64,000 bases of DNA from a virus (IMGVR_UViG_3300045988_115158:10702-74701); one strand, 5' to 3'. Shown: positions 3,537 to 58,976, counted from the first letter of the stretch. Made by a program: numbers and translations. The notes: generated from the letters alone by a model not told the origin.

Positions 3537-4545
3537 GCATACAATAGAATGCTACTAATTTAAGAAGGTGAGTAAACTCTTTAAATCCTTTATTAAAAAG
3601 TTCTCTAGTCATAGGAACTACTTTAGTATTAAAATTTGGAATAGTTTCTACTACTAAGAAATTACTTCTAATTTTAGGATTCTCAATGTTATAATTCTTC
3701 TTAGCAGCCATAGTTAATAACCAACTATATAAAGCCATCTCTCTATAATAGTGATATTTAATAAGAGCTCCTTTAGCAAAGTTATTTATTAAATCTCCTG
3801 TGGTTTTTAAATCATTTACAGTGATTATTCCTTCTTCTTTATCTATACTATAATTATCAAGTTTAGACTTAATTTTTAGTATAAAAGGTTTATGCTCTGG
3901 AGCCTCTACTAAAACATCTATAAGGAAAGCTATTTCATTACCAATAATTGGTTGTTCTAGTAATCCTTCAGGGTTTAGTAAAGATTGAATTTGTGTATCA
4001 CTATCTAGAGACTCTAGACAGACTTTCAGTTTAGCATGATTTTTAGGGTCTGTAAATATTGGTGTTCTAGCATCATTATTTTCTTTTTCAAAAGCTTTTC
4101 TATCACACCAGTATTGAGCACAGTCTGCTAACACTTTTTCTATTTTTTTATCTGACATTTTATCTTTATAATAATCACACTTATCAGATGCTTCTAATAT
4201 AATATCATTAGTAACATTGATACCTTGTGTTTTCTTATAAATATAATCTGCCATTGCCCCCATTTTAGCAGTAGGTCTGCTAACATCTGTTAGAAAGAAG
4301 TCATCAGGTTGTAAAACTAAAGTATGTAACCAACTACCAAATTCCAAACTAGTTGTATTTAACTTAGTCTTACCCCAATTATCAAAGAACTCTGTTGGAG
4401 AACCATCTTGATCTGGATTTATCTTAGATAATCTAGAGTTTGAGATATAATTATTATACTTTTTAGAGAAATAAGTATTGTCATCAATATCTTCAACTCT
4501 TAAAGTCTCTATCAGAGGTTTAATAGAAATTTGACTTAATTTCAC
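3499..4545 (-). CDS. PD-(D/E)xK nuclease, RecB/Cas4-like
   Basis: 348 aa. C-terminal VNDLKTTG (D-x-K-T) followed by YREMALYSWLL (Q/E..Y motif). Same motif set as the 58058-58975 protein. Confidence 0.5.
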   Translation of the reverse strand: MKLSQISIKPLIETLRVEDIDDNTYFSKKYNNYISNSRLSKINPDQDGSPTEFFDNWGKTKLNTTSLEFGSWLHTLVLQPDDFFLTDVSRPTAKMGAMADYIYKKTQGINVTNDIILEASDKCDYYKDKMSDKKIEKVLADCAQYWCDRKAFEKENNDARTPIFTDPKNHAKLKVCLESLDSDTQIQSLLNPEGLLEQPIIGNEIAFLIDVLVEAPEHKPFILKIKSKLDNYSIDKEEGIITVNDLKTTGDLINNFAKGALIKYHYYREMALYSWLLTMAAKKNYNIENPKIRSNFLVVETIPNFNTKVVPMTRELFNKGFKEFTHLLKLVAFYCMHGYEGFGITQET

Positions 4546-5056
4546 GTAAGTAATTGTTAAAGTCTTCCGACTCTTTTATACATTCATACCCATATTCTAT
4601 CTCTTCTTTATCTAAACTATAAATCTTACCATAAGGACCCCATTTTTCATTAGATTCAGAAGCTATTAATAAGCAAGGCAATCCTGCTAGATTCATCTGA
4701 ATAAAATTACTAATAGAATCATCAATGAAAATATCAACTCTACCTTTTATATACCGAGCTTTATTAGCACGCTGATATAAGACTTGATAAACAGGTTTAT
4801 TAGGATAACCATTATTCTTTAGCCATGTTTTACTATAGTCTTTATTGCATACTCTTTTAGTACAATATAATTCAGGTATAAAGTTTATTTTATTTTTTAC
4901 TGGAAGATTTATCCACCATTCTCTGTCTTTTATTAAAACTTGTTGTACATTTTTTGTTATTTCTCCATCAGACTTAGGATATCCAAATCTTTTTAAATAT
5001 GGATTCATAAACTCATTTAATGTATCATCTAAATCTAAACCAATTCTTAATTTCAT
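4520..5056 (-). CDS. HAD-superfamily 5'(3')-deoxyribonucleotidase-like
   Basis: N-terminal GLDLDDTL (DxDxT) and later IFIDD motif. Confidence 0.55.
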   Translation of the reverse strand: MKLRIGLDLDDTLNEFMNPYLKRFGYPKSDGEITKNVQQVLIKDREWWINLPVKNKINFIPELYCTKRVCNKDYSKTWLKNNGYPNKPVYQVLYQRANKARYIKGRVDIFIDDSISNFIQMNLAGLPCLLIASESNEKWGPYGKIYSLDKEEIEYGYECIKESEDFNNYLREIKSNFY

Positions 5057-5298
5057 AGATTAAATAATTCCTCAATATCTCTTATATATGTTACCCCAAT
5101 ACCTTTCTTAGCCAATTCAGCTCTGATATTTATCCAGCTATCATTGTTATCAAGAATAGCGTATGTATCATCGTCTAAATTTAAGTACTTATCAACTTCT
5201 TCTTTAGCCTTTTCAACAGCTTCCTCATATGAAGATGCTGTTAACTTATGAAGTTTATTTTTATTACTCTGACAAATTGCAAAAATATAATTATTCAT
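5053..5298 (-). CDS. hypothetical protein
   Basis: 81-aa ORF, translationally coupled. Confidence 0.4.
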   Translation of the reverse strand: MNNYIFAICQSNKNKLHKLTASSYEEAVEKAKEEVDKYLNLDDDTYAILDNNDSWINIRAELAKKGIGVTYIRDIEELFNL

Positions 5299-5479
5299 TT
5301 GGTATTGTTATATATAATTATCATTATAATAATAAATAATATCATCATGGTGATTGGGAGTGATAAAAATATTACCACTGCTAATGTTACCCAACTCCAT
5401 AATAATATTCCAAAAATCTTAAGTAAAATTAATATTATACTTATTATAAAATCTATTACTCCTAAGATTAATAATTCCC

Positions 5480-5989
5480 TTATATTAAATTATTACTTTT
5501 AGAATAACATTCTAATAAAGTATAGAAGAAATCCATAGGAACCATTGCTATTGCTCCTGGACTAACACTACCTTCTGTCGGAGCTTTTTTCCAGCATAAT
5601 ACAAATGGTTTATCTTTATATGGACAAGCATCTTCTATCTTAAAATATGCTGGAGTATTAGCAGTATGTTTGGCTTGAATATTTACAGGTAATTTTCCGG
5701 ACCTATCAATTAGATCAACTTTATTATTATCTGTAAACTTACTCTCTCCTCTAGCACTTACACACTCAGTATACCCCATATCTCTAAGATGATGAATTAT
5801 ATCTGCTTCCCATGCACTTCCTTTATTTCTAGACTTTTTAGCTTGATAACTCTTCTTAGTATGGCTATCTATCCATTCATATAAAGTGCCATCAGCCATT
5901 TTTCCAGATTTATTACACCTAATTTTAAGAGCTGCTTGACTTATTTTAGTTTTCTCAGAGCATTCCTCTATAGATGTATAATCGTGCAC
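5480..5989 (-). CDS. PD-(D/E)xK-fold nuclease, Hjc-like Holliday-junction resolvase candidate
   Basis: GSAWEADIIHHLRDMGY...VDLIDRSGKLPVNIQAK pattern (E..., D-x-D, Q/E-x-K). Confidence 0.4.
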   Translation of the reverse strand: MHDYTSIEECSEKTKISQAALKIRCNKSGKMADGTLYEWIDSHTKKSYQAKKSRNKGSAWEADIIHHLRDMGYTECVSARGESKFTDNNKVDLIDRSGKLPVNIQAKHTANTPAYFKIEDACPYKDKPFVLCWKKAPTEGSVSPGAIAMVPMDFFYTLLECYSKSNNLI

Positions 5990-9657: not shown

Positions 9658-10845
9658 TTAGTTCAGCGTCACTTCTAGTCGTTTAGCTTTTTCCTCTATT
9701 TCTAGAGGGTTTAGCACAGGAACTTCTTGCTCTTGTTCAAGATTTACCCTGTTTAACGGAGTTTTAGGTACACCTAATTTGTACATAAGAGTGTAATGCA
9801 TATATGGAGTTATTAACTCTTTTAAGTGCTCAAAATCTGAAATACTTAGTCTAATTGTTTGATCTGAATGCTTAGACCAATGCAAGTTAAATTTTGTAAG
9901 CATTACTTCTTGAATAACTTTAATATCTGCATCTGTAAAACAGTTTGTACAAATTGTTATAGAACCATGGTCATAACATCCATCATCCATTATCCAAACT
10001 GCAATACCCAAAGGTTCAATGTTGTCTATAAGAGATTTATTAATATATTTTATTTTATTATTATGATATAATTTATTATAATAGGCTCCCATAGCATCAT
10101 TTACTTTAAAATGTGTATACAAACAAGCATACCATTTACCTTTTATATCATTAAAGTTATCTTTAAAAGATACTTTTCCACAAAATCTTCTTAATTTATT
10201 ATATTTCCAATAAAAATATTCCGCTTGTTTTAAACTATGTGCAAACATTCCAGTTCCACTTTCATCTCTAAGATACCCATCTCCTAATAAACATCCTAAG
10301 AATACTTGAAATTCCTCCGAAGATAATTCATTTAATCTATTTTTATTTTTATTTGGAGATAGCCCTAAAGATCTAGCATATTCTGAAATAGCACTATTAC
10401 TAGTATTTAATTCTTTAGCAATATCTACGTAAGTTAATCCTTGATTATATAAATCAATAAATTTATTTTCATCAAACTTTGGTTTATATTCAAAATTTGA
10501 ATCTAAATTTTTACGTATACGCCAGTTACGTACAGTAACATGATTTAATTGAACTATTCTAGCAATTTCAGAGTCATTTTTTCCTTCTTTATAAAGTTTA
10601 TACATTTCTTCATCATACTTTGCACGATTTTTATAAAGAGACCCATAAATACCCTGACCAATACTCGGAATATTAATTTTCTTTTCTTTAGGTTTTAAAA
10701 TATCTTTAGCACTTAAATTAAATTCAGATAATCTCTTTCGAACTACTGAGAGAGTTACTCCTAGTTTATCTGCTAATTCTTGTCTAGTATGGCAAGAATT
10801 AGCTGCTTCAATAAAATCACTTTTAGAAATTTCAATTTTTTTCAT
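9658..10845 (-). CDS. free-standing LAGLIDADG homing endonuclease with N-terminal HTH repeats
   Basis: LGCLLGDGYL and VWIMDDGCY motifs. Three sigma70-r4-like HTH repeats at the N-terminus. Located immediately downstream of the intron-containing helicase gene. Confidence 0.65.
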   Translation of the reverse strand: MKKIEISKSDFIEAANSCHTRQELADKLGVTLSVVRKRLSEFNLSAKDILKPKEKKINIPSIGQGIYGSLYKNRAKYDEEMYKLYKEGKNDSEIARIVQLNHVTVRNWRIRKNLDSNFEYKPKFDENKFIDLYNQGLTYVDIAKELNTSNSAISEYARSLGLSPNKNKNRLNELSSEEFQVFLGCLLGDGYLRDESGTGMFAHSLKQAEYFYWKYNKLRRFCGKVSFKDNFNDIKGKWYACLYTHFKVNDAMGAYYNKLYHNNKIKYINKSLIDNIEPLGIAVWIMDDGCYDHGSITICTNCFTDADIKVIQEVMLTKFNLHWSKHSDQTIRLSISDFEHLKELITPYMHYTLMYKLGVPKTPLNRVNLEQEQEVPVLNPLEIEEKAKRLEVTLN

Positions 10846-10910: not shown

Positions 10911-11558
10911 TTATTTTTTAAAAGTTATATAAAAATATTGCGTTAGTGTACCAGTTTCCTTGATATCCTCAACCATTGGTTCCATGAAAGCTTCATTTTT
11001 CTTTCTTTCCATGTTAGCTACACTTCTATTAGACTGCATAATGAAAAGAACAGATAAATCAGTTTTATTTCTAACAACTACAAGTTTATTAGCACATTCG
11101 TCAATCTCTCCTTTTTTAGTGCGTCCATTAGCAGGTATTAAAAGTCCCGCATGGTCAATTACAGCTAAAACAGTTTGTTTAGGATTATTAGGAGTATAAT
11201 GACCATCTTTAAAAGTGCCCTCTTCTTTAAGAACCTGCATAATTTCAGATATTACTTTATCAGAAGTATGGGCACCATCAAATATAATTAATTTTTTATA
11301 TACCTTTTCTAACCATTCATATCCTAATTTTACATATTCATATATATCATCTGGTAAAGTATAATCTTTACCTATAGAAAGTATCTGTTTAGCAGATATT
11401 CTAATATGATAAGTATCATACAAATACGTACTTAATAGTTTAGCTATAATAAAGAATTCTTTCATCTCAAGAGCAAAGAAGATAATCTTAATTTTATTAT
11501 CTTCTAGGTGCTCTTTTAATGGAATATAAACATATGAATATAGGGCTGCACTTGATTT
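10911..11558 (-). CDS. DnaB-family replicative helicase, exon 2 (from Walker A lysine onward)
   Basis: Frame extends upstream of the annotated Met as KSSAALYSYVYIPLKEHLEDNKIKIIFFALEM..VIDHAGLL..FIMQSNR. This matches DnaB GKT-FSLEM-DYLQLM-QLNR motif order. Confidence 0.6.
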   Translation of the reverse strand, partial: KSSAALYSYVYIPLKEHLEDNKIKIIFFALEMKEFFIIAKLLSTYLYDTYHIRISAKQILSIGKDYTLPDDIYEYVKLGYEWLEKVYKKLIIFDGAHTSDKVISEIMQVLKEEGTFKDGHYTPNNPKQTVLAVIDHAGLLIPANGRTKKGEIDECANKLVVVRNKTDLSVLFIMQSNRSVANMERKKNEAFMEPMVEDIKETGTLTQYFYITFKK

Positions 11559-12775: not shown

Positions 12776-13906
12776 TCAGAATCTAAAATCAAATTTAGGA
12801 ACTATCTTTTCACCTGGGGTAAAGTCTTTACCTTGTAACACTTTATCCAATTCTGATTCGTCTATAGTTATAAAAGAATCTCCCTTATGAGAATCATAAA
12901 ACCACTTAGTTTCTTGAGTTCTATTTAATACTATATTGAATATTTCTGCTGTCTTACCTTTTTCAAAGCGGATTGATCTTCCTCTCCGTTGACAAGCTCT
13001 AGTAGTTGAACTATCTAATCCAAATATAATAGCTACAGAAAGACCTTTTACATCAAGTCCTTCATCAGCTTTTTTTACTGTAGATAATAGAGTTATCTTT
13101 CCAGAGTTAAAATCTTCAATAGCTGTAGCACTTCTTTTCTTAGAAGTTCTACTAGAATATACAGTAGCATTAGGAATTTTTTCTGCCATTTTAATATTAT
13201 TAGCAAAAGTTATTATTTTTTTATCCTTTCTAGCTTCTATAATTTTCTTTACTATTTCAATTTTCTTTGGATGATTATTTATGAAAGCTTTTTTCTCATG
13301 CATAGTAGACCAAAATCTGATAGCATGATAATTTATACTTTGTAATACTTCAGACTTTTTATTAGGATCACTACACATAGAATCTCTTAGGAGTAGTTTA
13401 TTTCGCCAACCCATAGGACCAGCTAATTTATTAACTAACTCCCAAGAGAATCCGAAGAATTCAAAATGAGAAATGAATTCTTTATTTATTTTTTCATATT
13501 CTTCTAAATCATCAACATTTACTAAGACTAGATATTCTTTATATGGGCTAACCCAACCATTTGCAAGACAAGTATTAATATCAATAGTATCAATTACTGG
13601 ACAGTATTTTGCTAATATTTTATCTCTACCATCAAGACGCTCAAAAGTAGCTGTAAGACCTAAGATAAATTGGTATTTTACTACTTCAAATAATCTTACA
13701 AAAGTCTCAGCTGCATATCTATGCGCCTCATCCAGTACTAAAAGATCATATTTGACAGGATGTTTTATTACAGTGTTTATTATTTGTACATCACAACTTA
13801 ATCCTAGCCCATTAGAATCTATATGACCACACCATTGTTTTTGTAAAGTTTCTGTTGGCACAATTATTAGTACTCGATATTGTGGAAAGTGTTTTAACAC
13901 TGTTTT
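12776..13906 (-). CDS. SF2 DNA helicase (UvsW-like), exon 2
   Basis: Begins KTVLKHFPQYRVLIIVPT. LVLDEAHR (DEAH), GLTAT (motif III), QRRGRSIR (motif VI). Confidence 0.6.
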   Translation of the reverse strand, partial: KTVLKHFPQYRVLIIVPTETLQKQWCGHIDSNGLGLSCDVQIINTVIKHPVKYDLLVLDEAHRYAAETFVRLFEVVKYQFILGLTATFERLDGRDKILAKYCPVIDTIDINTCLANGWVSPYKEYLVLVNVDDLEEYEKINKEFISHFEFFGFSWELVNKLAGPMGWRNKLLLRDSMCSDPNKKSEVLQSINYHAIRFWSTMHEKKAFINNHPKKIEIVKKIIEARKDKKIITFANNIKMAEKIPNATVYSSRTSKKRSATAIEDFNSGKITLLSTVKKADEGLDVKGLSVAIIFGLDSSTTRACQRRGRSIRFEKGKTAEIFNIVLNRTQETKWFYDSHKGDSFITIDESELDKVLQGKDFTPGEKIVPKFDFRF

Positions 13907-19072: not shown

Positions 19073-19882
19073 TTAGATAACTTTAAACATTGTAACATTC
19101 TCAGGAAGATTGTCCCAGTCTTTATAAGAGTTAGTAAACCATACGTGATTAAAGTTTTCTGACAGATTCTTTATACCTTTAGGATTTACCATATGAGTGA
19201 CTACGATATTTAAACGTTCCTTAGGGATACCTAAAGCATTAAATGCTTTAGCAATACCACAAAAAGTTCCTCCACCATCACATAAATCATCAAGAATTAA
19301 TAATGGTTTATCACTAATTATTTCAGGATTGTCTATTTTAATCTCTAAGATTCTTCCAGTAGTTAAATCTCGAACTTTACTACAAGTAATTGCTGTACTA
19401 TTATATCTGAATTCATTTCTCTTTTCAGCTCCAGCATCTGGGAAAACTAATTGAAATTCTTTCCAAGTATTATTAGATGGATTCTTTTCAGCGTAAAGAG
19501 GCATGAATTTAGCTCCGAATCTAGGATCATAATAAACATCAGAATGAGGTTCTAAGATTTCAATAGTCTCTGCATTACAATTTTTTAATACATTTAAGAC
19601 TATTTTTAAAGTGAATGGTCTATTGAAAACCATTACTCGATCCATTCTCATACTCATTAAGTAATAGATATTTATTTTATATAGAACTTCATGTCTATCA
19701 AGGATATCTAAAACTTGCATAAGTATAAACAAGTCTTCGGCATTAGTAATTCTACATTTTACTAATACTTGTTCCTTATGACTAAATTCTTCTAATGAAA
19801 TTTGAACTTCCCCATCAGGGAATCTAGAGATAGAATATTTAATATCACTATCTTCTAGATGTACTAAATTTAATTGTTGCAT
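19073..19882 (-). CDS. ribose-phosphate pyrophosphokinase-like enzyme (PRPP synthetase family; candidate ADP-ribose pyrophosphokinase of an NAD+ reconstitution pathway)
   Basis: PRTase-type motif LLILDDLCDGGGT. Length and layout like Prs. Adjacent to NAMPT-like and macro-domain genes. Confidence 0.55.
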   Translation of the reverse strand: MQQLNLVHLEDSDIKYSISRFPDGEVQISLEEFSHKEQVLVKCRITNAEDLFILMQVLDILDRHEVLYKINIYYLMSMRMDRVMVFNRPFTLKIVLNVLKNCNAETIEILEPHSDVYYDPRFGAKFMPLYAEKNPSNNTWKEFQLVFPDAGAEKRNEFRYNSTAITCSKVRDLTTGRILEIKIDNPEIISDKPLLILDDLCDGGGTFCGIAKAFNALGIPKERLNIVVTHMVNPKGIKNLSENFNHVWFTNSYKDWDNLPENVTMFKVI

Positions 19883-20364
19883 AATTTATAAATATAAAGA
19901 GTTATTGTTGAATCATTAGCAAAAAGTTCTTGAAGCATAGGATAAACTACTCCATCCCAATCTCCTCCTGCTAATCCACATCCTAATTTATAAGGAATAC
20001 CTACTTCTGTTACTTCTTCGTCTTCACAAAAAGCTTTTAAATTTAACAAAGCTTTTTTAAGAGCATTATAATCAGTATGTCTATTTTCAAAAGGAGCTAC
20101 TGATTCAGTGAAAGAATATTCACCAAACAAATTAGCTACAAATTTAATAGGAAATTCTCCAGTTACACATATTTGACATTTACCTAATAAATCTTTAGAA
20201 TATTCAAAATTTTTACAGATATCAACATATTGTGTATATACAATATTCCATTTATTTTTAATAAACCTAGCTATACCTGCTCCCATTACTCCTAAACAGT
20301 TAGTTTGATGAGCTATAAGAGGTAAGTTTGATTGGAGTAAATCTCCATTAACAATTTTTATCAT
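19870..20364 (-). CDS. macro-domain protein (ADP-ribose binding/processing)
   Basis: GDLLQS..LIAHQTNCLGVMGAGIA macro-domain signature. Confidence 0.55.
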   Translation of the reverse strand: MIKIVNGDLLQSNLPLIAHQTNCLGVMGAGIARFIKNKWNIVYTQYVDICKNFEYSKDLLGKCQICVTGEFPIKFVANLFGEYSFTESVAPFENRHTDYNALKKALLNLKAFCEDEEVTEVGIPYKLGCGLAGGDWDGVVYPMLQELFANDSTITLYIYKLCNN

Positions 20365-20631
20365 ACTAATGTTGAATTTACACGTTCACGAATTTCAGAA
20401 AGAGAATATTCTCTTACTAATTCTCCATCTACAAAGACTGTTTTAAGACAACCTTGCAGTTCTGCATCCTTAGTCTGCTGGTCATAAGCGACATACTTAC
20501 CATTCTCTTCTTCAACTCTAATAAGACCTTTAAGAGAGTTCTTTGTTCCATCATCAGTCTTTGGGTGCTTATAGATTTCTATAAGTTTACCATTAATTAT
20601 ACAAGCAGTTGCTTTTACTGCAACATAAAAG
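20362..20631 (-). CDS. nicotinamide phosphoribosyltransferase-like (NadV/Namat-like), 3' exon
   Basis: No Met. Reads ..FYVAVKATACIINGKLIEIYKHPKTDDGTKNSLKGLIRVEEENG.... This is the NAMPT C-terminal conserved region. The frame opens right after a TAA. Confidence 0.55.
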
Positions 20632-21568
20632 CTTTTACTTTATCCCATTTTCTAGTCATATAGTCACAGTTATCTATGTACATATATAACTTTTCAAGGT
20701 CTTTCCTTGAAGCAATTTCTGCTTTTACATAACCTTTATTACTTGTTTTAATATTAAATCTTATTCCATATAATTCCTCTATTTTAGAGAATAATTCTAT
20801 AAATCTATCTTTCCAATTTGGATGTACTTCTATTCTTAGAGCAATAGAACCATGATTAGTTTCAGTTTGATTGCTAATCCATATAGACCCATCACCATCT
20901 ATTAAACCTATTAAAAAATAGATTAATAAATCTTTAGTATAGAATATATCCAATTTTGGAGGATTATACGTTTTTGGATTAGTATACTCTAAAATAGAGT
21001 ACCATTTTTCTTGAAATTTTTTATCTTGAATACGTAAATCAACAAACTCAGAATTTTCTTTAGAAAATCCTCCAGACTTAATTCTTAGTGTTATTTTACA
21101 TTTAAGATGTTCAGCTAACACCTTTAGATAATCTTTATCCTTGCCTGATAAACATATACATAATTCTCCTCTAGGAGATAAATGACCATCAGCCATAATA
21201 AAGCCCCACCAATAAGCCGATTTACTAGTAAGATTATCTAAAAATTTTAAAGAACCCTAACGCTTTCTTTCAACTTTAGAGGTTACTTTTAGTAATCTGG
21301 CTTTATTCATCATCTAAGAATAAGTTCTAGTAGGGAAAGTATTCAATAATGTTTCCATATCAGAATTTTCCCAATGAAACTTTAGAAGATCTTCCTCTTC
21401 ATTTGTCCATCTCTTATTCTTTTGGATACCAAGCTCTCTAGCTTTTTTCTATAAAGCTTTAACAGTTCTATTTAAACCAAACTCATCTATACATTCTTGT
21501 GCTGTATGGTCTAAATAAAAGGTATTCAAGATTTCAATTTCTTTTTCTGTCCAACTTGCACATTTCAT
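20615..21568 (-). CDS. LAGLIDADG homing endonuclease with Myb/SANT-like N-terminal repeats; contains 3 in-frame TAG codons
   Basis: Frame from ATG at 21568 reads WTEKEIEILNTFY.., WTNEEEDLLKFHW.., ..AYWWGFIMADGHL.., ..LIGLIDGDGSI. TAGs occur at three positions with no TAA or TGA. Confidence 0.55.
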
Positions 21569-21843
21569 ATTATATAAATTTAAGTAGTTTTAACTGTTTA
21601 AATATAATAATTTTCAGTAAAAGTTACAAGTAATAAAAGTTAAATTATGTTAATTTTTATGGACTATATCATAATCCCTATATTTAGGGATTCCGGATGC
21701 TGTAGGCTCACCGTAGTGTCCTTAGTCTCTGAACCTTCCACAGTCTTCCCTGTGGCTCGGCTGCTGATTAAGAATTAACAAACTCTTCCCAGCAATTCTT
21801 CCGGTTATTCGATATGCATTACTGCATAAAGGGGCTCGCAGTT
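20632..21843 (-). other. group I-type intron in the NAMPT-like gene, carrying a LAGLIDADG endonuclease ORF and a GC-rich structured core (21660-21810)
   Basis: Exon ends ..RDSLGF(tt) and resumes (c)FYVAVKATA. U precedes the 5' splice site and G ends the intron. The intron core is markedly GC-rich relative to the genome. Confidence 0.5.
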
Positions 21844-22424
21844 AACCCAAGAGAATCTCTACTCTTAAACTGATAAGTATAAGATCCAATACCAAGAACA
21901 AGATTACAAGCTGCCATATGAGCATTTTCTAATCGAGCATAGATATCACGCTGACGCTCTAGAGTGATAGAATCTCCATAGAGCAACCCAACCTTGGTGC
22001 TTGGATAACGATAATCGTTCACAGTAGTATTCCATCCAAAGATTTTACCTAGCATATAATATGCTCCATAATACTGACCTTCAGATACTTCTACATAATG
22101 ACTTTCATCATCATCCATAAATGGATTGAAATCACAATAGTACTTGCCTTCCTTCATTGCAGTGTGGTAATGAGGATTTGTACGAAGACCACAAATAATA
22201 TCCACTGGGTCACCACTATCAGGACGAATTACTACTCGACCATCACGCTTCATAATGTCTTTTTTCAGACGAGGGAGAATACGTTCTACCACTCTCCAAA
22301 AATCATAAGTATCACTAACTATAGATACAATTCCAATAGGATATAATTCATTTATCAATCTTTTAATTGACAATAATTCTCCAATAAGTTTTTTGTCCTC
22401 TTCAGACGCTTTTTGAATTTTCAT
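21819..22424 (-). CDS. NAMPT-like enzyme, middle segment (ends in intron-derived residues)
   Basis: IVSIVSDTYDF and VVIRPDSGDP NAMPT/NAPRTase motifs. The last ~8 residues (LTASPFMQ) are intron read-through. Confidence 0.55.
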   Translation of the reverse strand: MKIQKASEEDKKLIGELLSIKRLINELYPIGIVSIVSDTYDFWRVVERILPRLKKDIMKRDGRVVIRPDSGDPVDIICGLRTNPHYHTAMKEGKYYCDFNPFMDDDESHYVEVSEGQYYGAYYMLGKIFGWNTTVNDYRYPSTKVGLLYGDSITLERQRDIYARLENAHMAACNLVLGIGSYTYQFKSRDSLGLTASPFMQ

Positions 22425-22500
22425 ATTTATACGCTTTTTTCAAATTATCAATAGCCCATAAAGGCTGTAAATTTTTATAACAGAAACACTCTTTTTGCTA

Positions 22501-23343
22501 TTAGAACAAATTTTTGTCTCCATTTATATCAATATATCCAATTAATTTACCAAAATCATCTAAGATTATTTCTTCTACATTATCTTCAAAATCACTAATA
22601 GTAGAGCAAGCCACTGAATGTTCCGAAGCCGGGACAGTTGCAGCTACAAGTTCTTCAGTAACATCTGCATTGTAATAATGCTCTACTGCTTCAATAGCAG
22701 GAATTGTTTCACTACCACAGAATGAAGTCATATGAGCCATACCTGAAATAATAGCAGCATCAAGTCCTGCCATACCTCTCATTGAGAAATCGTGACAAGA
22801 GAAACCTAGATTTACATCTTCTGGGAATCCAGTCTTTCTAGCATGTTCCATAAGTCTCTTTTTATAGAGACGAGCACTTGTTGCAGAAGTACAAGGAAGC
22901 CATAGAGTACAACTAATTAAAGTTTCCAAGTAATTAGTCAACCAAAAGAAGTCCGGAAGAGTGTTCTTAATAGTCATCATAGGTACTCTTATAGGACAGA
23001 TAGAACCTTCAGGAAGAGCTTTAATTTCAATAGGAAGATACCCCAAATCATAAAGTTCTTCAATATGCTTTGTCCCAACCTGGTTAAGGTCTACAAAGTT
23101 ACCTACACGATAAGCAAATTGCTTAATAGCTTCTTCCTTAGGAAGAGCAAACCATTTATTAAATTCCTCTATCAAATACTTCTTTACAAAGTACTGAATA
23201 CCAAATACTACAGAACCTTCTGTAGCTTCTGGGAAGTAACGATTACTTCTAGGAGTCCAGTTACTATAGACCATTTGTGTACCCTCTGGGTACATACGAT
23301 GATGACCAAGCTTATAGCCATCAGTTGCATTAATAATTTCCAT
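22501..23343 (-). CDS. NAMPT-like enzyme, N-terminal segment (separate ORF, 76-nt gap to next segment)
   Basis: N-terminal TDGYKLGHH motif. 280 aa + 201 aa + 3' exon add up to NAMPT length. Confidence 0.55.
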   Translation of the reverse strand: MEIINATDGYKLGHHRMYPEGTQMVYSNWTPRSNRYFPEATEGSVVFGIQYFVKKYLIEEFNKWFALPKEEAIKQFAYRVGNFVDLNQVGTKHIEELYDLGYLPIEIKALPEGSICPIRVPMMTIKNTLPDFFWLTNYLETLISCTLWLPCTSATSARLYKKRLMEHARKTGFPEDVNLGFSCHDFSMRGMAGLDAAIISGMAHMTSFCGSETIPAIEAVEHYYNADVTEELVAATVPASEHSVACSTISDFEDNVEEIILDDFGKLIGYIDINGDKNLF

Positions 23344-37389: not shown

Positions 37390-37461
37390 GAAATGCGGAC
37401 AGATTTGAACTGTCGACCTTCTACTCAACGATAGACGCTCTAACCACTGAGCTACACATTT
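37390..37461 (-). tRNA. tRNA-like gene with non-canonical anticodon loop (6 or 8 nt, cgttga / tcgttgag)
   Basis: Perfect acceptor, D-arm (gctc-agtggtta-gagc) and T-arm (gacag-ttcaaat-ctgtc). The anticodon arm tctat-cgttga-gtaga is one nt short of canonical. Confidence 0.45.
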
Positions 37462-39846: not shown

Positions 39847-39916
39847 TGGAGATATGTGGAATCGAACCACAATCTCGGGATTTTTACCGTGCTCTAACCT
39901 TCTGAGCTATATCTCC
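39847..39916 (-). tRNA. tRNA-like gene, anticodon arm degenerate (loop taaaaat)
   Basis: Good acceptor (ggagata/tatctcc), D-arm and T-arm (tgtgg-ttcgatt-ccaca). Anticodon stem only 3-4 bp. Identity unresolved. Confidence 0.35.
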
Positions 39917-40024: not shown

Positions 40025-40108
40025 TACGGTAGAAAGGATTCGAACCAATGACCTTCTCGAAATGACCTATTATAAAAAGAGATGCTATAACCACTGAGCT
40101 ACTACCGT
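40025..40108 (-). tRNA. tRNA-like gene (84 nt), anticodon region unresolved
   Basis: Acceptor acggtag/ctaccgt and D-arm are clear. T region attggttcgaatccttt is shared with the 40539-40619 element. Confidence 0.3.
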
Positions 40109-40538: not shown

Positions 40539-40619
40539 TACGGAGTAAAGGATTCGAACCAATATAACCTCTCTATGAATTGTGGAAATGAGGTGCTCTA
40601 GCCATTAAGCTAACTCCGC
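40539..40619 (-). tRNA. tRNA-like gene with enlarged anticodon loop (~11 nt)
   Basis: Acceptor gcggagt/actccgt. D gctt-aatggcta-gagc. Anticodon region cctcat-ttccacaattc-at(a)gagg. Confidence 0.3.
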
Positions 40620-47938: not shown

Positions 47939-48335
47939 AATCTTTAACGTTTTAAATTTGTTAATAATTTTTTGTTTGGTTTTTACTCCAAATATGTGGG
48001 GGGCTCTAAGGGGCAGTCTACTCCCTCCCACATAATAAAAATTAATTTTTAAAATCCCACTCTCACCTTCTTTCTCCACAAAAATTCCTATTTTTTAAAC
48101 CCCAGGGGGCTATATAAAATCTTCTCCAAAAAAAATTTAAAATTTTAATTTAAAAATATTAGAATATTAACTTTTACAAAAATTAACTTTTAATATTCTC
48201 TACCTCGACTATATTATTCGTGTAATCAAAAAGAAATATTAAATGAATAAAGAACAACTAATACAAAGTATTAAAGACCTTCCTGATTAGTATAATATAA
48301 ATTTATAGGTTATTGATAATGTAATTCATATAACC

Positions 48336-48545
48336 ATGACTAAAAAGGTAGATGAATTTGAAGAATATTGTAGTAAATTAGATGATGAAACATTTAACAA
48401 TGCTTGTCTAATATTTGGAATTATCTCAGATATATCTTTAGAAGATTTTTCTTCTAATTTAGATAATTCTAAATATAAAAAATATAAACAAGAATTTAAA
48501 CACATAGTTGATTTTTTAAATGATAGAAACATTACAAAAAATTAA
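48336..48545 (+). CDS. hypothetical protein
   Basis: 69-aa ORF, first gene of the short plus-strand unit. Confidence 0.4.
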   Translation: MTKKVDEFEEYCSKLDDETFNNACLIFGIISDISLEDFSSNLDNSKYKKYKQEFKHIVDFLNDRNITKN

Positions 48546-48741
48546 TAAGATAGTTCCTAATCTTACAGTATCTCAATTAATAGAACTAGTAAATATTATT
48601 AATGGACCTAAATTAACTATAGACAATATGATTTTAAAAGGTATAAAAGATATACCACATAATGGGTTTATTGCAGTAGACACTAATAGTATTAAAACTA
48701 CTTCTACTGAAAATCCTTTTAGTGTTAGTAGTTATCTATAA
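48520..48741 (+). CDS. hypothetical protein
   Basis: 73-aa ORF. Confidence 0.4.
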   Translation: MIETLQKINKIVPNLTVSQLIELVNIINGPKLTIDNMILKGIKDIPHNGFIAVDTNSIKTTSTENPFSVSSYL

Positions 48742-48750
48742 AGATAATAT

Positions 48751-48785
48751 TCTCCTATGGTGTAATGGTTAGCACAGAAGACTCT
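48751..48785 (+). tRNA. amber suppressor tRNA-Gln(CUA), exon 1 (positions 1-35)
   Basis: tctccta-tg-gtgt-aatggtta-gcac-a-gaaga-cuCU. D-arm identical to the tRNA-Gln family. The exon ends in U. Confidence 0.6.
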
Positions 48786-49788
48786 TAAAAATTTTAAAGT
48801 ATGGAAAATAAAATTTATAAACTTACGGATAAAGAGTTTTCAGACTTAGTTAAGTCAAGTCTGAATATCTCAGAAGTTTTATTTAAACTTGGATATACTA
48901 CTGTTGGTAACAGTTGGGGATATTCACAAGTTAAACAAAGAATGCAAGATTTAAATTTATCAGGTAAAGATTTTAGAGGAAAATCAGCTATAGCCAACTA
49001 TAATGAAAAGAAAGAAATAGATGCTTCTAAATTATTATGTGAAAATTCAAAACACGCACGTAATATATTAAGAAGTTATATATTAAGAAACAAATTACTT
49101 CCTTATACATGTGCAATATGTGGAATTACAGAGTGGCAGGGCAAAACTTTATCTCTAGAATTAGACCATATTAATGGTGTAAATAATGATAATAGAATAG
49201 AAAATCTAAGATTTTTGTGTCCTAATTGTCATAGTCAAACTACTACTTATGGTGCTAAAAATAAACAAAAAGTAGAATCTAAATACGAGCTTTCTGATGA
49301 ATTAAAAAATTTAATTATTAGTTCTTATATAGAATTAAAAAATCAAAAGAAAGTTGCTGATAAATATAATTTAAATTCTAAAGCAGTAAAGCAAGTTTTA
49401 TCAGAAGCTGGATTAACTAAACAAAATCAAAAGTATGTTATACAATATGACTCTTCTCATAATGAAATAAGAAGATTTGGATGTATAGCTGAATGTTGTC
49501 AATGGTTAATGGATAATAATTTAGTAACTACTAAATTAATGAAAACTTGTAGAGCAACTCTAAATAGAAATATTGGCATTCTTTGGAAAAACTATTACTT
49601 TGAAATATTGGATGCTTAAAGGATAATTCATAATCTTTAAGTAGAATCTCTTTTAATTGACTTGGAAGCGTATATACTTAGTATAAAGTGACAGGGCGCA
49701 AGTTTAAATACAGCGTGAACGACTAAATAAAGAGACTGGTCCTAGGACTGGATGTGATAGTCTAATCCTCTACAGAGGTGTTAAAATG
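48786..49788 (+). other. group I intron in the tRNA anticodon loop (between positions 35 and 36), encoding an HNH endonuclease
   Basis: The 3' region carries R-like (gtgaacgactaaat) and S-like (gatagtctaatcc) core elements. It ends in G. Only the U/G rule-compliant splice gives a 7-nt loop, cUCUAaa. Confidence 0.55.
48801..49619 (+). CDS. HNH homing endonuclease (intron-encoded)
   Basis: CAICG...LELDHINGVNNDNRIENLRFLCPNCH. Standard code, no TAG. Confidence 0.65.
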   Translation: MENKIYKLTDKEFSDLVKSSLNISEVLFKLGYTTVGNSWGYSQVKQRMQDLNLSGKDFRGKSAIANYNEKKEIDASKLLCENSKHARNILRSYILRNKLLPYTCAICGITEWQGKTLSLELDHINGVNNDNRIENLRFLCPNCHSQTTTYGAKNKQKVESKYELSDELKNLIISSYIELKNQKKVADKYNLNSKAVKQVLSEAGLTKQNQKYVIQYDSSHNEIRRFGCIAECCQWLMDNNLVTTKLMKTCRATLNRNIGILWKNYYFEILDA

Positions 49789-49825
49789 AAATCTTTTAGT
49801 CAGGGTTCGAATCCTTGTGGGAGAA
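49789..49825 (+). tRNA. amber suppressor tRNA-Gln(CUA), exon 2 (positions 36-72)
   Basis: AAA-tcttt-tagt-caggg-ttcgaat-ccttg-tgggaga-a. Stems pair with exon 1 (gaaga/tcttt, tctccta/tgggaga). Confidence 0.6.
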
Positions 49826-49826
49826 C

Positions 49827-50108
49827 ATGATAGCAGCAATTTATGAATTAAATGGTAAGATTTTAAAAACAACTAATCTTACTAAAAAATTAAAACGATT
49901 AAAATCAGAACCTAAGATTCTATTTCAATTAGAGAATGGAACAGAAGCTGATTTAGACCAATGGATTAAAGACAACCAAAATATAAATTCTAATTCAGAA
50001 GAAGATATAGAAATTAAAAAATATCATTATAGAAATCCAATTACAGGATATACAATGACTTCTATATATGATAATCTAGATGTTAATGGTTATATAAAAA
50101 TTGATTAA
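49827..50108 (+). CDS. hypothetical protein
   Basis: ORF starting at the ATG right after the tRNA 3' end. The ORF track started it at an upstream TTG. Confidence 0.4.
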   Translation: MIAAIYELNGKILKTTNLTKKLKRLKSEPKILFQLENGTEADLDQWIKDNQNINSNSEEDIEIKKYHYRNPITGYTMTSIYDNLDVNGYIKID

Positions 50109-50266
50109 TGACTAACAAAGAAGTAAAAGACTTAAAGTCTAAAATGAACAAAGTACTTAATGAAGTACAGTAGATTATTGATACTATAGGAGATAATGAT
50201 TTACAAGATAATCAATTAACTCTTGATTTTTGTGATAAGTTAAATGAATTATCTGTTACTTATTAA
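50108..50266 (+). CDS. small hypothetical protein containing one in-frame TAG
   Basis: MTNKEVKDLKSKMNKVLNEVQ(TAG)IIDTIGDNDLQDNQLTLDFCDKLNELSVTY, TAA stop. Confidence 0.35.
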
Positions 50267-50289
50267 TAAATATTTGGGGATGGATATTT

Positions 50290-50345
50290 ATTAATTTAAA
50301 AAAATAGCCGAGGCTTCTCATTTGAGAAACTTCGGCTATTGTGGT
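50290..50345. terminator. bidirectional rho-independent terminator between convergent units
   Basis: Two-tier hairpin agccgag..ttctca-tt-tgagaa..ctcggct. Flanked by an A-run on the plus strand and a T-run on the minus strand. Confidence 0.55.
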
Positions 50346-50392
50346 TTTAATTATTTTATATATAAAAAATTTCCTCCACCAGTATTTTGAGC

Positions 50393-51487
50393 ATCATACT
50401 CTAATAAATCATCTCTGGTAAATATTTTATCAAAGGTTCTTAATCCTGAATGATAAGTACCATTATCTAAAGTATATAAATCTACTGTTTTAACATTGTT
50501 TCTAGATTTCATAGCTTCTATCTCATCTCTAATATTATCTATACTTCCGGAAACTAAACGAACTTCTTTACCCGCCTATATAATTATTCTTCCTCCAGCT
50601 ATAGAACCATATTCATCAGTTCTATTATTATTAGCTAAGAAATTTAGTCTGTTATTTACTGATTTACCATTTACTATAGCATTTAATATAGGACTTTTTC
50701 TAGAACCATTAGAATTACTTTCCATGAATAATACATTATCTTTAGAATCTGTTTTGAAACCAGTAACTGTATTTTTAAATGTTGGAGAAATCATACTTCC
50801 ATTAGGAATATCTGAATATTTACCAAAAACAAATTTACCAATAGAATCTATACCTATATAATTCTAATTATTAGGAGATATACTTTCTTTAGATTTGAAA
50901 TTAGAAAAAGCAGTAATAGGAGCTGCTATACTATTTATAGGAGTATAATCACCTCTATTTCTATAACCAAAAGTATGCTTTGTTAAATTTATGGATTCTG
51001 GTATACGATATCTTCTAGAGTTTATTTTAGTAGTATCATTTATAGTATAACTATTTGGAGATATTTCTATTTCTAAATTTTCTCTCTTCTTATTTTTAGT
51101 TACTTTTTTATTAGGAATTTTAATTCTTTTACTAGTATGCTCAGGTTCTGAATCAAAAAATAACTATAGTTTTCTACTTAATCCATTTCCTACTAAATTA
51201 ATCAACTATTTACCACGTTCCCATATTGTTTCTTCTTTCTATTTAGGAGTAGATATTTTTTTAGCAGTAGGCATTTCTTTATATTTTGTAGGGTGGTATA
51301 CTAAGGTAGATGTTGGTTTAGTAGGATCTACTCCTTTAGCCTAAACCTATGGAAATATTATACTATTAGCTTTATCAGAATTAATTTTAAAAGGGACTTT
51401 ATTTGATTTTCTTCTACCATACAACTACCCATCTTCATACCAATAATCATATATTGAATCATTGTCAGTAATTATCTATACAGCCAT
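50393..51487 (-). CDS. late (structural?) protein, TAG-recoded (~364 aa)
   Basis: Continuous frame MAVQIITDNDSIYDYWYEDGQLYG...TRDDLLGV with about 12 in-frame TAG. TGA stop. Includes ORF-track fragment 50576-50794. Confidence 0.5.
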
Positions 51488-52520
51488 GGTGTTCTTACTA
51501 TTACTGGAGTTCCTAATTTATCTAATATTTTTAATCCTAATACAGCTTTACTGTCTAAATCATATGAACTCCATTTCTACTTATATTCATCAGGATTAAA
51601 CTTCCAAATATCTTGTGCTCTATATACTTTCTTACCATTAGATGTTCCTTCCTAAACTAGATGTCCAGCAGCATCAACTCCATTATCTCCAAAGTCTAGA
51701 TTATTATTAGCACCTTTCCAAGGAGTTTTATTAGTTATATTAGAAGCTTTCTACATAGGGTTCTTAGTAAAGAAATCTAAAGTTTCAGTATTTTCATATA
51801 CAGGAATATCTTTATATGGATATATCTTTCTTATATAATTCTCATGTGGACCATAATCTACATTTATTTTCTTTACTCCATAAGAAGGATTTATAGTTTT
51901 ATTATATAAATAAGCATCAATCATATCATTACCTTTAGCTGCTTTCTAAAATCCAGTATATGCTTCAGGAGCATAGGTATTGTAACCTACACCAGTTGAT
52001 ATATAAGACAATACTCCAGCATGCTTTTTAGGACTTGCTTTATGCATATTATATACTATGTCTTCTATAGGATTTGCATTATTAGAAGTTCTCATAGCTA
52101 CTTCTACTCCACGTTTTAAAGGAGCTTTTACAGCATATCCTATTGCAGGAAGCATTACTAAATAATTACTAGCTTTAGTTGGATTCTTAGATATATCTAA
52201 AGCACCTTTAGTATAATCATATACTGCCTAAGCAGCTGGAGCTAAAGCATAACCTATTCCTGAATTAACTAATGCTTTAATAGGACTAGTATTATTATTC
52301 CAACTATCTACTTCTCTAGCATAAGCTCCTTTTATAGGATGGGTTCTATTTCTATTACTATAATTATATAATTTAGAATGAGTATGTCCTCCCTATTTTA
52401 TAGTCCCTCTATTATCTACAAATACATCTTGTACCCCATTTAAAGTTCTAACTGGAATAGCTCTCTACTAATATTTAGCACCAAAATATGGAGATTTAAA
52501 TCTAGGATGATTTAGTCTAT
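51472..52520 (-). CDS. late protein, TAG-recoded; 5' end unresolved (possible -1 frameshift at TTTAAAT near 52495)
   Basis: Frame ...FKSPYFGAKYQQRAIPVRTLNG...MLPAIGYAVKAPLKRGVEVAMRT...PWLYR, TAA stop. No in-frame ATG for the first ~130 codons. An upstream ATG lies in the +1 frame. Confidence 0.4.
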
Positions 52521-52582
52521 TATAATATTCCATATCTATAGCCATCTATTTATTCCGAGTATTATTATTTACTCCTTTATTT

Positions 52583-52939
52583 TGTTTACTTTCATCTACT
52601 CTTGGCATATTTATGTTTTATATTATGGGTATAAGTTACATTATTGGAATAATCTATAAATTTCCAATCAAAAACATTTCCTATAAAACTCTCTAAAAGA
52701 GATTTTCCGTATTTATAATGATTATAATTCTTAAAATTATTTAAGTCTATATTATCTCTATAGTATTTTAATTGATTTTGTAATCTCCATACCTGAATAA
52801 TATACCTTCTAGTAGTTTCAGCCCATTGCTATAATTCAGGGTATTTATAATAATCTCTATCAAAATAATCTTTACTTAAATCAATACATCTATTATATAA
52901 ACTTTCATCTATTAATGTTCCTACTCTTCTTATAAACAT
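52583..52939 (-). CDS. late protein, TAG-recoded (~118 aa)
   Basis: MFIRRVGTLIDESLYNRCIDLSKDYFDRDYYKYPEL(Q)(Q)WAETTRRY...HKYAKSR. Start overlaps the upstream gene end. Confidence 0.45.
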
Positions 52940-53813
52940 AAGCACTTCCTATTATTGGAGTTAAACTTTTAAATATATCTAAATTATTCCAATCAATATG
53001 CATTGTTCCTTTTTCATCTATAATATTAGGATTAAATAGTATTGATTTTGTTGGAGTTTGATAAGTTCCAGTTTTAAGTAAGTAAACAGGTCCATTACTA
53101 ACGTTTTGCATATTAGGATTATGTTTATTCCATTGCCATTCTCCAAAATTTCCAAGTAATTCTTTATTTTTATATTTAGGATACATTTTAGATGTTTTTT
53201 CTGGAGACAATAATGTTTCCCCACTTACTACTCCTTTACCATTTAAAGATTTATTTACTTGAATAGCTGAATTAGTCATACGCTCTTGTATTCCTTTTTT
53301 AACTCCTTGAGATAAATTACGAACCATCCCTATATGGCTATATCCAGTTTTATTATTAGTTATCAAATCTATGTCTCCTATAATTTTATGGTTATCTATT
53401 CCCACAATTTTTGAATTACTACTGATAACTCCAGGCATATAATGCATATTATAACTATTTGGAGCAGTTTGTTTTATTAATCTTTGTCTTAAATTAAATG
53501 CAGTATTTAAATGGTCTGGTGTAATACCATTAGTAATAACTCCGTTCTGTCTTAATAATTTCAACTATTTTAACTACTAAGAATTAAATCTAAAATTTTT
53601 AATACCAGTTTTTGCAGGACTACTATTAATAAATTTAAAAAAATTAGAAGTTCTATTAATAGATCCACTAGGAGCAATTCCAGTAATTAAATGAGGATTT
53701 CTATCGTCTACAGAATGTATTATGGTATTATATAATGATATTAAAGGATTAGGATAATCCCCTCCAAACGGCATTTTATAATTATAATATTCTCCATTAA
53801 TTCCTCTTGGCAT
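52905..53813 (-). CDS. late protein, TAG-recoded (302 aa)
   Basis: Joins ORF-track fragments 53577-53813 and 52905-53564 through ...RFNS(Q)(Q)LK(Q)LKLLRQNG.... TGA stop. Confidence 0.55.
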
Positions 53814-53815
53814 AT

Positions 53816-54031
53816 TTATACTTTATTTTTCCATATACTAGTTATACTATCTATACCTAGTAATCCCATACAACAATATAAAACTGTATCTATCATATCA
53901 GGAGCTTGTATCTAACTAATAGAACAGTATATTAGAATAATTAAACTTACTATCCATCCTAATATTCCACACACTCTTTTACTACTTATTCCAGTATGCG
54001 CTGTTATTAATTTAATTAAAAACTATTTCAT
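53816..54031 (-). CDS. holin-like small membrane protein, TAG-recoded
   Basis: MK(Q)FLIKLITAHTGISSKRVCGILGWIVSLIILIYCSIS(Q)IQAPDMIDTVLYCCMGLLGIDSITSIWKNKV. Two TM helices. Next to the lytic transglycosylase region. Confidence 0.45.
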
Positions 54032-54034
54032 TGA

Positions 54035-54355
54035 TTAGCTTAGATAACTAAACCAACTATAATGTTTTCTATTACTTAGATAATCTAAATTATTCTAATT
54101 CTAATAAGCCTCTCTTTCAAAAGAAATATTTTTATAAGCTAATTTAGTATTTCTATATATAATTAATCTAATTAAATATTCTATTACATACCATAAATAA
54201 AAGAATATATATAACAATTCTTGCATCTACTTAGTATGTATAGTTTCATGGTTTATATCTATTTTATTTGGCATTCTTCTACAAAATAATATTCCAAATA
54301 AATTTATACATTTAAAACCTTTTGGAGGTAAGATATTATTTATAATTATTTTCAT
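54035..54355 (-). CDS. hydrophobic small protein, TAG-recoded
   Basis: MKIIINNILPPKGFKCINLFGILFCRRMPNKIDINHETIHTK(Q)MQELLYIFFYLWYVIEYLIRLIIY.... Confidence 0.4.
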
Positions 54356-54424
54356 TGTCTTAAATATTTATTCCATAACTATTTATCTCTTTCATTTATA
54401 AAATCTAAAAATTTTTGTAATTCC

Positions 54425-57222: not shown

Positions 57223-57384
57223 AATGTAATAAATAAGATTAAAATACTTTTGAATATAAATAATCTATATATATACTTAAATAGTACAAAATAATAATAA
57301 CTTTACCTATTAAATATAGTAATAATGTTATTATAGATAACATATATATAAATATTACTTATAGTAATATGAAAAAAAATTATA

Positions 57385-58975: not shown

Positions 58976-58976
58976 T

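Follow-up and report, generated by a model that had tools for sequence, protein, structure and literature searches.

In a 64,000-nucleotide (nt) stretch of viral DNA, IMGVR_UViG_3300045988_115158:10702-74701 (the whole of which is referred to below as the window), the gene for Namat, a NAMPT homologue that is an NAD+ reconstitution enzyme of the NARP1 type and an anti-defence gene of gut phages, occurs in three coding pieces. This gene has very probably been colonised by two independent homing elements, an HNH endonuclease cassette and a group I intron, both of which have been rendered tolerable. Every feature of the locus lies on the minus strand. A preliminary description of the same DNA had recognised a NAMPT-like gene broken into three coding pieces, and this is borne out by PHROG 448 (nicotinamide phosphoribosyltransferase, 500 positions), of which positions 15-267 are matched by a first open reading frame (ORF1) and positions 263-496 by a second one (ORF2) together with a last exon. 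The Pfam families matched by the pieces are NAMPT_N and NAPRTase.

ORF1 (23343-22501, 280 aa) stops where the preliminary description had placed its end. Its homologous part, the N-half of Namat (22606..23343, residues 1-246), is delimited by NAMPT_N, NAPRTase, PHROG 448 and the homologue alignment, and ends with ...PASEHSVAC, directly past the catalytic-His EHS motif. ORF2 (22424-21819, 201 aa) lies in a different frame beyond a gap of 76 nt (22500-22425), the same gap as had been described earlier. It continues the NAMPT sequence and, as had also been seen, runs into an unrelated tail (LTASPFMQ*) immediately past ...SRDSLG. Its coding portion, the first exon of the C-half (21845..22424), begins with an ATG at 22424 and a basic leader, MKIQKA, contains the motif GSYTYQFKSRD, and has U21845 as its last base. 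The last exon (20361..20623) reads FAVKATACIINGK...KHPKTDDG...STLV and closes with a TGA stop at 20363-20361, so that the lower bound of the gene is 20361 rather than 20362.

The label NAMPT needs to be narrowed. Namat, the nicotinamide ADP-ribose transferase of NARP1, forms NAD+ from nicotinamide and ADP-ribose pyrophosphate (ADPR-PP). The family assignment stands, and within the family the gene is, judged by homology, motif and neighbourhood, a Namat (NARP1) gene and not a classical NAMPT that uses phosphoribosyl pyrophosphate (PRPP), because it is closer to a solved Namat than to Nampt, carries the Namat motif, and is accompanied by an adjacent Adps-like gene. With the insertion at the first break removed, its best solved relative is 9W5X/9W5W (E 8e-137), compared with 7e-57 for human NAMPT; these entries are the structures of SpbetaL1 Namat (PMC12774641). 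The Namat-specific motif is GSXΦ1XΦ2XΦ3TRD, in which the aromatic X residues stack on the adenine of ADPR-PP (Lan et al. 2026, PMC12774641). This SCH signature is present in the window as GSYTYQFKSRD, where the X residues are Y, Y, and F, Φ1 is T, and Φ2 is Q; it departs from the motif in an atypical K at Φ3 and in S in place of T. The gene thus resembles the NARP1 Namat in its Nampt-like catalytic core, its motif, its Adps-like neighbour, and its best structural match, and differs from it in being divided into three coding pieces, in the Ser-for-Thr and Lys departures, and in having a macro-domain gene between Namat and Adps. The nearest annotated Namat homologues (56-58% identity) belong to Crassvirales. 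A megablast search against phage records matched 158 nt and nothing more.

The second break is, on structural and comparative grounds, a group I intron of 1221 nt (20624..21844), which starts with UAACUGCGAGCCC and ends with ...GCUUUUAUG, its terminal G lying at 20624. A search for group I models had been proposed in the preliminary description, and when 21875-21615 (~260 nt) was searched alone, RF00028 was matched over its full length (model positions 1-253) at 21854-21638; the score of 59.3 bits (E 6.5e-15) exceeds the gathering score, which is 50. An ORF-less copy of the intron in the related IMG/VR contig L015 scores 58.9 bits with the same model. The entire catalytic core lies within the first ~190 nt of the intron, and the GC-rich, structured segment remarked upon previously is recovered there: GC content is 44% at 21844-21655, compared with 30% in the window and 28.5% in the endonuclease ORF of the intron. 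The core motif pattern has one occurrence in the window, against 0.08 expected.

The ribozyme core (21638..21854), as defined by RF00028 and by covariation, comprises P1 (21848-21844 with 21836-21832), P2 (21827-21814), P3 (21804-21800 with 21697-21693), P4/P5 (21795-21761), P6 (21755-21738), P7 (21727-21723 with 21666-21662, pseudoknotted with P3), a small P7.1-like hairpin (21718-21709), and P8 (21692-21673). The frame of the first exon terminates at a TAA (21821-21819) in the P2 tetraloop. A 20-nt core word was used to search IMG/VR, which yielded 11 related introns, and an alignment of nine sequences was used for covariation. In this alignment, 96.6% of the helix cells are paired, compared with 29-42% in slid controls, and double changes are found in 23 of the 43 base pairs, a value that none of 500 shuffles reached. 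All five pairs of P3 show double changes, as do five of six in both P6 and P8, while P4 and P7 are invariant; overall, covariation is seen in P1, P2, P3, P6, P8, and P10. An insertion of 21 nt separates P7 from P3', which, in line with the td and Twort introns, may point to an IA-like intron of subgroup IA. The P9 loop, at the tip of a terminal CAUAAAA/UUUUAUG hairpin, holds the endonuclease ORF, and it is at this loop that the ORF-less copies in L015 and L006 are collapsed.

The splice sites can be placed to the nucleotide. At the 5' site, the exon ends in U21845, which is paired with G21835, and this U·G pair is kept in eight of the nine sequences; together with the terminal G20624, this agrees with the view that the junction fits group I rules. 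At the 3' site, the first bases of the second exon (UUGCAGU, from T20623) pair with intron positions 21842-21836, 5' of the P1 guide, to give a P10 helix of 7 bp. P10 covaries across four variants: UUGCAGU/ACUGCGA in the window, UCGCAGU/ACUGCGA in L006 and L015, UUGCAAU/AUUGCAA in L009, and UCGCAAU/AUUGCGA in L027. Joining 21845 to 20623 yields ...SRDSLG|FAVKAT..., which is invariant in unsplit homologues and is also found at the DNA level in the related scaffold MT836666.1 (cttgggtttgctattaaa). The predicted spliced junction is ...AGAGAUUCUCUUGGGU|UUGCAGUAAAAGC (in RNA, ...CUUGGGU|UUGCAGU...), and the intron-less target sequence at the insertion site is ...AGAGATTCTCTTGGGTTTGCAGTAAAAGC.... 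RNA splicing at U21845/G20624 would therefore restore ...SRDSLG-FAVKAT..., as far as the structure allows prediction. The exon restart proposed earlier (FYVAVK, at 20631) takes in 8 nt of the intron and gives way to T20623, and the length of 1212 nt becomes 1221 nt (21844-20624). The intron site lies three codons past the adenine-clamp motif GSYTYQFKSRD.

Members of the same intron family were also observed at other sites in IMG/VR contigs L008, L010-L012, L014, and L016-L018, with an invariant GGUUCAGAGACUAAGGACACUA[CA]GGUGAGCCUA core and a GAAA-capped P9. No host gene was recognisable among the ORFs upstream of these copies, and some of them may for this reason sit in RNA genes. With regard to detection, the Namat intron is 9 bits over threshold when ~260 nt are searched and is overlooked by the default or gathering filters of Rfam cmscan in 64 kb and 3.1 kb of AT-rich DNA; other introns in such AT-rich phage genomes may escape the default filters likewise.

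The intron carries a two-motif LAGLIDADG homing endonuclease gene (20615..21568; PHROG 4645), whose 317 codons and three in-frame TAG codons are as first described. Pfam LAGLIDADG_1 (PF00961) is matched with 36.2 bits against a cutoff of 23.1, the motifs being GFIMADG (near residue 121) and IGLIDGDGS (near residue 226), and the first domain has a weak match to PF03161 (E 0.027). The Myb-like repeats that had been proposed for this protein are upheld in part: two N-terminal repeats of ~45 aa, W[ST]xxE...L...RT...KAxxLG, helix-turn-helix-like, are discernible by eye and match PHROG 323, but no Pfam (Myb) match was obtained for them at E<=1. Among solved structures, neither the LAGLIDADG protein nor the HNH protein had a significant match.

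All three in-frame stops of the endonuclease gene are TAG (codons 40, 85, and 104, at 21451-21449, 21316-21314, and 21259-21257). The L009 orthologue (80% identity) has CAA (Gln) at all three sites, and the L027 orthologue (61% identity) has Gln at codon 40. In the window, coding density at 48-64 kb (4-kb bins) is 0.29-0.54 under code 11, compared with 0.80-0.97 when TAG is read as sense, and the long ORFs at 48000-64000, on both strands, contain 3-13 in-frame TAG each; three of these ORFs gave no PHROG matches. Coding density at 0-48 kb is similar under both codes, which is compatible with the standard code, and the LAGLIDADG endonuclease is the sole long ORF with internal TAG in this part. 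Judged by these patterns, the phage reads TAG as sense in part of its genome, as in code 15 (TAG→Gln), and the TAG codons of the endonuclease are taken to be Gln because they align with Gln codons in the orthologues and the late region is TAG-recoded. Since the L009 and L027 orthologues are free of TAG, the recoding of the window copy would be recent. The endonuclease stop, TAA at 20617-20615, falls 7-9 nt inside the downstream exon, so that the excised intron would be a non-stop message. Three TAG codons and an exon-located stop together would thus confine homing activity to late infection.

Several known systems bear comparison with this arrangement. The T4 introns in td (with I-TevI) and nrdD(sunY) (with I-TevII) likewise interrupt phage nucleotide-metabolism genes and have an ORF looped from a peripheral helix. 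The 5' end of the window intron, UUGGGU|UAA.., and its GAUAUAGUC P7' strand resemble td, and the endonuclease ORF lies 3' of the core, as in nrdD. In both cases, endonuclease expression would be restricted to late infection. The T4 introns differ in that their endonucleases are GIY-YIG rather than LAGLIDADG proteins and in that their timing depends on a late promoter and RNA structure, whereas amber recoding would provide it here; in addition, the endonuclease stop lies here in the downstream exon, and the host gene is Namat. Another case is that of the Agate phages, in which recoded in-frame stops occur in the intron endonuclease of a standard-code early gene, and for which delay of the TGA-recoded endonuclease until late infection was proposed (Borges et al. 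2021, bioRxiv 10.1101/2021.08.26.457843). The Namat locus differs from them in phage lineage, in TAG→Gln instead of TGA→Trp recoding, in a second, free-standing endonuclease family that is also TAG-recoded in relatives, and in the recent recoding of the window copy, suggested by the TAG-free L009 and L027 orthologues. The crAss-like Delta and Zeta phages are also gut phages with TAG- or TGA-recoded late genes and many LAGLIDADG-bearing group I introns (Yutin et al. 2021, PMC7886860), and the nearest annotated Namat homologues are Crassvirales genes; the reported intron hosts there are core genes, those for the major capsid protein (MCP), PolB, primase, and TerL, not Namat.

The first break is, by homology to intact genes in relatives, the stump of a free-standing gene for a putative HNH endonuclease. 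Unsplit homologues read EHSVMCAGGxEDELxTFKRLI, whereas ~205 nt are inserted past EHSVAC in the window, which contains no other copy of this insertion. Within it lies a 122-nt stump (22402..22523), whose two sides overlap ORF1 (at its end) and ORF2 (at its start), with METKICSN (+1 frame) at its 5' end and QKECFCYKNLQPLWAIDNLKKAYKYENSKSV* at its 3' end. The stump keeps the first ~24 nt (METKICSN) and the last ~100 nt (QKECFCYKNLQPLWAIDNLKK...) of the HNH gene, with 84% identity by tblastn over the last 31 aa. Between the same gene halves, intact ORFs of 209-213 codons are present in L007, L009, and L020, and L022 has a homologous ORF there. These ORFs overlap both halves, contain several TAG codons, have the motif WHLDHIRPC...NLQPLW...N, and match PHROG 1035 'endonuclease VII' (1.8e-24) and PHROG 2255 'HNH endonuclease', with no Pfam match. 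Comparison with L007 (642 nt, versus 122 nt in the window) indicates that about 520 internal nt have been deleted. The 76-nt gap had been suspected of being an older insertion or excision scar, and it does hold both ends of a gene that is intact in relatives. On the other hand, the partial duplication of the ORF ends (KLIG/KLIG) proposed alongside this was not established, the tail of ORF1 having no counterpart in unsplit homologues.

The cassette appears to have left more than a scar. An acidic C-terminal tail of the N-half (22501..22605; 34 aa, net charge -7, TAA stop) is cassette-derived, absent from unsplit homologues, and conserved in split relatives. N-halves of ~280 aa with this tail occur in at least 10 protein clusters (63-91% identity), with the consensus C[SA]..S[IV]D[IV].EV[IV]LDD...I[IV]GY[IV]D..G.K..[LF]*. 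The C-halves have their own conserved ATG and leader in all relatives, and all begin M-x-[IV]-[RKQ]-[KQ]-A. Among the relatives, the tail carries a net charge of -3 to -7 and the leader one of +1 to +3. AF2 models the tail as a beta-hairpin and a third strand (pLDDT 69-76), inside an otherwise poor model.

The closest precedent for this layout is the nrdA/mobE locus of phage Aeh1, in which a free-standing HNH gene splits an enzyme gene by its active-site codons, the endonuclease gene overlaps the downstream half, and the insertion brings AT-rich, oppositely charged C- and N-terminal tails without database matches (Crona et al. 2010, PMC3045599). It was shown experimentally that the insertion-derived tails carried by NrdA-a and by NrdA-b are indispensable for activity (Crona et al. 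2010, PMC3045599). Because the architecture is the same, the Namat halves are most probably made as separate polypeptides, which the cassette-derived tails would hold together without any splicing. The two cases differ in the enzyme (Namat here, NrdA there), in the polarity of the tails, which is reversed (acidic N-half, basic C-half), and in the occurrence of the arrangement in many related gut-phage lineages. They also differ in that the endonuclease gene is here reduced to a stump while the split and the tails persist, and in that Aeh1 has been studied biochemically.

Comparison with relatives gives evidence of mobility. The IMG/VR contig L015, with about 97% identical flanks (95-100% upstream of the first break), has an unsplit gene and an ORF-less intron, so that genomes of about 97% identity differ in whether this one site holds the endonuclease ORF. 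Compared with L015, the window has an identity of 64% over the 100 nt past the cassette, then 90-92% over 300 nt, and then 94-98% over a further 300 nt that reach through the intron core. Recovery takes about 500 nt, and this dip fits a co-conversion tract that would have been imported with the cassette. In MT835492.1 (L002), a 96-97% identical phage scaffold from human faeces in Mexico, the Namat gene is gone: a clean 3.28-kb deletion (in its 16835 region) of window positions 23738-20457, with a 7-nt overlap at the junction, takes the end of a DUF5662 gene, the intron, and Namat except for its last ~97 nt. MT836666.1 (L001), whose Namat protein is 73-79% identical, has an unsplit gene without intron that lacks 56 aa, the KHPKTDDG region included, from four codons past the intron site, and this deletion may be a footprint of imprecise intron loss. 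It was also observed that the Namat frame of MT836666.1 (5380-7365) is open back into an upstream AAA-ATPase-like ORF, giving a stop-free frame of 661 aa.

A more distant relative, L027 (ENA ERZ28633372 scaffold_197, 4150-5670), has two group I introns around a 39-nt mini-exon that encodes exactly SYTYQFKSRDSLG, the Namat adenine-clamp motif. One of these introns is ORF-less and the other carries a 317-aa LAGLIDADG gene, and both 5' splice sites read GGGU|UA. Namat proteins among the relatives range from 201 to 490 aa in length, which indicates further interruption sites.

Taken together, the following course of events is proposed. An HNH gene (TAG-recoded in relatives) would have inserted directly past the EHS motif and split Namat into two ORFs in different frames, the cassette providing the N-half with its acidic tail of 34 aa and the C-half with a start codon and a basic leader. 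In the window phage, the HNH gene would later have lost about 520 internal nt. The two Namat polypeptides would reassemble non-covalently, aided by their tails, as NrdA-a and NrdA-b of Aeh1 do, and the group I intron RNA would splice out and so rejoin the exons of the C-half. Synthesis of full-length endonuclease would have to await amber suppression and would depend on RNA in which the 3' splice junction is still present, namely unspliced or intron-initiated RNA. A further-reaching version can be entertained only tentatively. According to this, the HNH cassette brings along a 'repair kit' made up of an acidic tail, folded as a beta-hairpin, and a basic leader; this kit re-zips the split enzyme, is selected clade-wide, and has outlived the endonuclease, while amber recoding and the exon-located stop make splicing and endonuclease synthesis mutually exclusive and separated in time. 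If this were true, co-adapted selfish elements would maintain an anti-defence gene as a stable multi-piece gene.

Several points weigh against two tolerated homing elements in a working gene. Splicing, protein, and activity are all predicted from the reading of the DNA. No intron was matched in an Rfam scan of the whole window (gathering mode) or in a scan of 3.1 kb (E<=10). The AF2 model of the N-half alone is poor (mean pLDDT 48.8), too poor to define how the tail folds or what it does. The HNH enzyme must be regarded as dead in the window, because just the last ~31 aa are retained. Neither the window nor 121 kb of MT835492.1, which is 96-97% identical, yielded a suppressor tRNA with a CUA anticodon; a suppressor tRNA has been detectable in just 40% of TAG-recoded genomes (Borges et al. 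2021, bioRxiv 10.1101/2021.08.26.457843). Finally, the gene is dispensable or decaying in relatives, being deleted in MT835492.1 and internally deleted in MT836666.1 and in protein P0012, and given such loss and decay the copy in the window could be non-functional.

The last of these points, with the degraded HNH gene, leads to the alternative that survives best, namely that the locus is a decaying pseudogene in which the split, the in-frame stops of the endonuclease, and the stump are all signs of decay and no functional Namat is made. This is improbable, since no frameshift or stop is present in either Namat ORF or in the last exon, these pieces span the whole family profile, the split-with-tail layout is kept in relatives at 63-91% identity, every helix of the ribozyme core is kept, and the endonuclease stops are exclusively TAG, at Gln positions of the orthologues, in a phage that recodes TAG.

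It was also considered whether the first break is healed at the RNA or protein level to give one polypeptide, by a small second intron, by bypassing or frameshifting as in T4 gene 60, or by an intein that is split or degenerate. The insertion has a matching TCT codon at its flanks (..GCT TGC TCT | ... GCG TCT | GAA, by eye), the tail begins at Cys, like inteins, and bypassing in T4 gene 60 has been linked to a mobile endonuclease cassette (bioRxiv 10.1101/2022.08.31.505936). However, the insertion is ~205 nt long, AT-rich, and without RNA-family match in the 3.1-kb scan; it is homologous to both ends of a protein-coding HNH gene, the putative take-off codon is accompanied by neither a stop codon nor a hairpin, and in all relatives ORF2 starts from a conserved ATG and leader of its own. 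A second intron, bypass, or frameshift was rejected because of composition, the HNH-end homology, and the conserved separate start codon. For a split intein, the tail of 34 aa and the leader of 6 aa (MKIQKA|S) are far too small a pair for the Hint fold, and the ten N-half tails searched gave no Pfam match at E<=10, Hint and intein included. Healing of the break in any of these ways is accordingly judged highly unlikely. Least credible is a metagenomic assembly chimera of co-existing strains, which would suit an uncultured source and close relatives that differ at exactly the Namat locus, but the identical order of N-half, HNH gene, C-half, LAGLIDADG intron, and last exon recurs on L009 and L013, which are independent contigs, other samples contain N-half proteins (P0001 and P0003) of 98-99% identity that end in the same tail, and frames and RNA pairings are coherent across every junction.

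With colonisation by two tolerated homing elements thus preferred, each component of the locus has published precedent: phage group I introns with endonucleases, genes in pieces, recoded intron endonucleases, and intron-rich recoded gut phages (PMC7886860). The novelty lies in the host gene, Namat, in the presence of both elements together at the two key motifs of this gene, in a split that outlasts the HNH gene, and in amber codons that this copy of the endonuclease acquired recently. The literature searched contained no earlier account of an intron in a phage gene for NAMPT or Namat. Across a large clade of phages of the human gut, Namat, a counter-defence enzyme of recent discovery, is a hotspot of homing elements, which lie at the catalytic-His motif and at the adenine-clamp motif; standard annotation reports only fragments (201-490 aa) because the gene is interrupted by such elements. 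Among the alleles of the clade, which form a natural series, are an unsplit gene, a split gene whose HNH gene is either live or dead, an intron that has or lacks an ORF, two introns around a mini-exon of 39 nt, and loss of the gene. This series could be used to test two published ideas, that tails neutralise fragmentation and that stop-codon recoding times a homing endonuclease.

Downstream of Namat lie a macro-domain gene (20364-19870, Pfam Macro) and an Adps-like homologue of ribose-phosphate pyrophosphokinase (19882-19073), which matches PHROG 619 at 4.9e-60; these partners (19073..20364) additionally match PHROG 335. Adps belongs to the ribose-phosphate-pyrophosphokinase family (NARP1 literature; Osterman et al. 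2024 preprint 10.1101/2024.02.11.579819). By gene content and order, the Namat, macro-domain, and Adps-like genes form what is read as a NARP1-type module, and the order of NAMPT-like gene, small gene, and Prs-like gene is also found in the Crassvirales phages DAC15 and cr85_1.

With regard to the decoding of TAG, four minus-strand tRNA-like genes (40025-40108, 40539-40619, 39847-39916, and 37390-37461) are over the Rfam tRNA threshold and have aberrant anticodon arms: two have 11-15 extra loop nt, one has an arm that is 3 nt shorter, and one has a loop of 5-6 nt. ARAGORN calls one of the two extra-loop genes 'tRNA-Stop, anticodon TTA'. As a CUA suppressor is not present, these four genes are candidates for the TAG-decoding agent.

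A second homing endonuclease with helix-turn-helix and LAGLIDADG domains (9658-10845, minus strand; 395 aa, PHROG 11023) has no internal TAG. The 184-aa ORF directly upstream of it (neighbour 10914-11465) ends inside a weak DnaB_C match, and a nearby SF2 helicase ORF (neighbour 12779-13900) starts mid-domain, at position 124 of the ResIII profile. An Rfam scan found no intron at 9.4-11.4 kb beside this gene, with filters that also missed the Namat intron. This second LAGLIDADG locus is probably another replication gene that is interrupted by an endonuclease gene or an intron.

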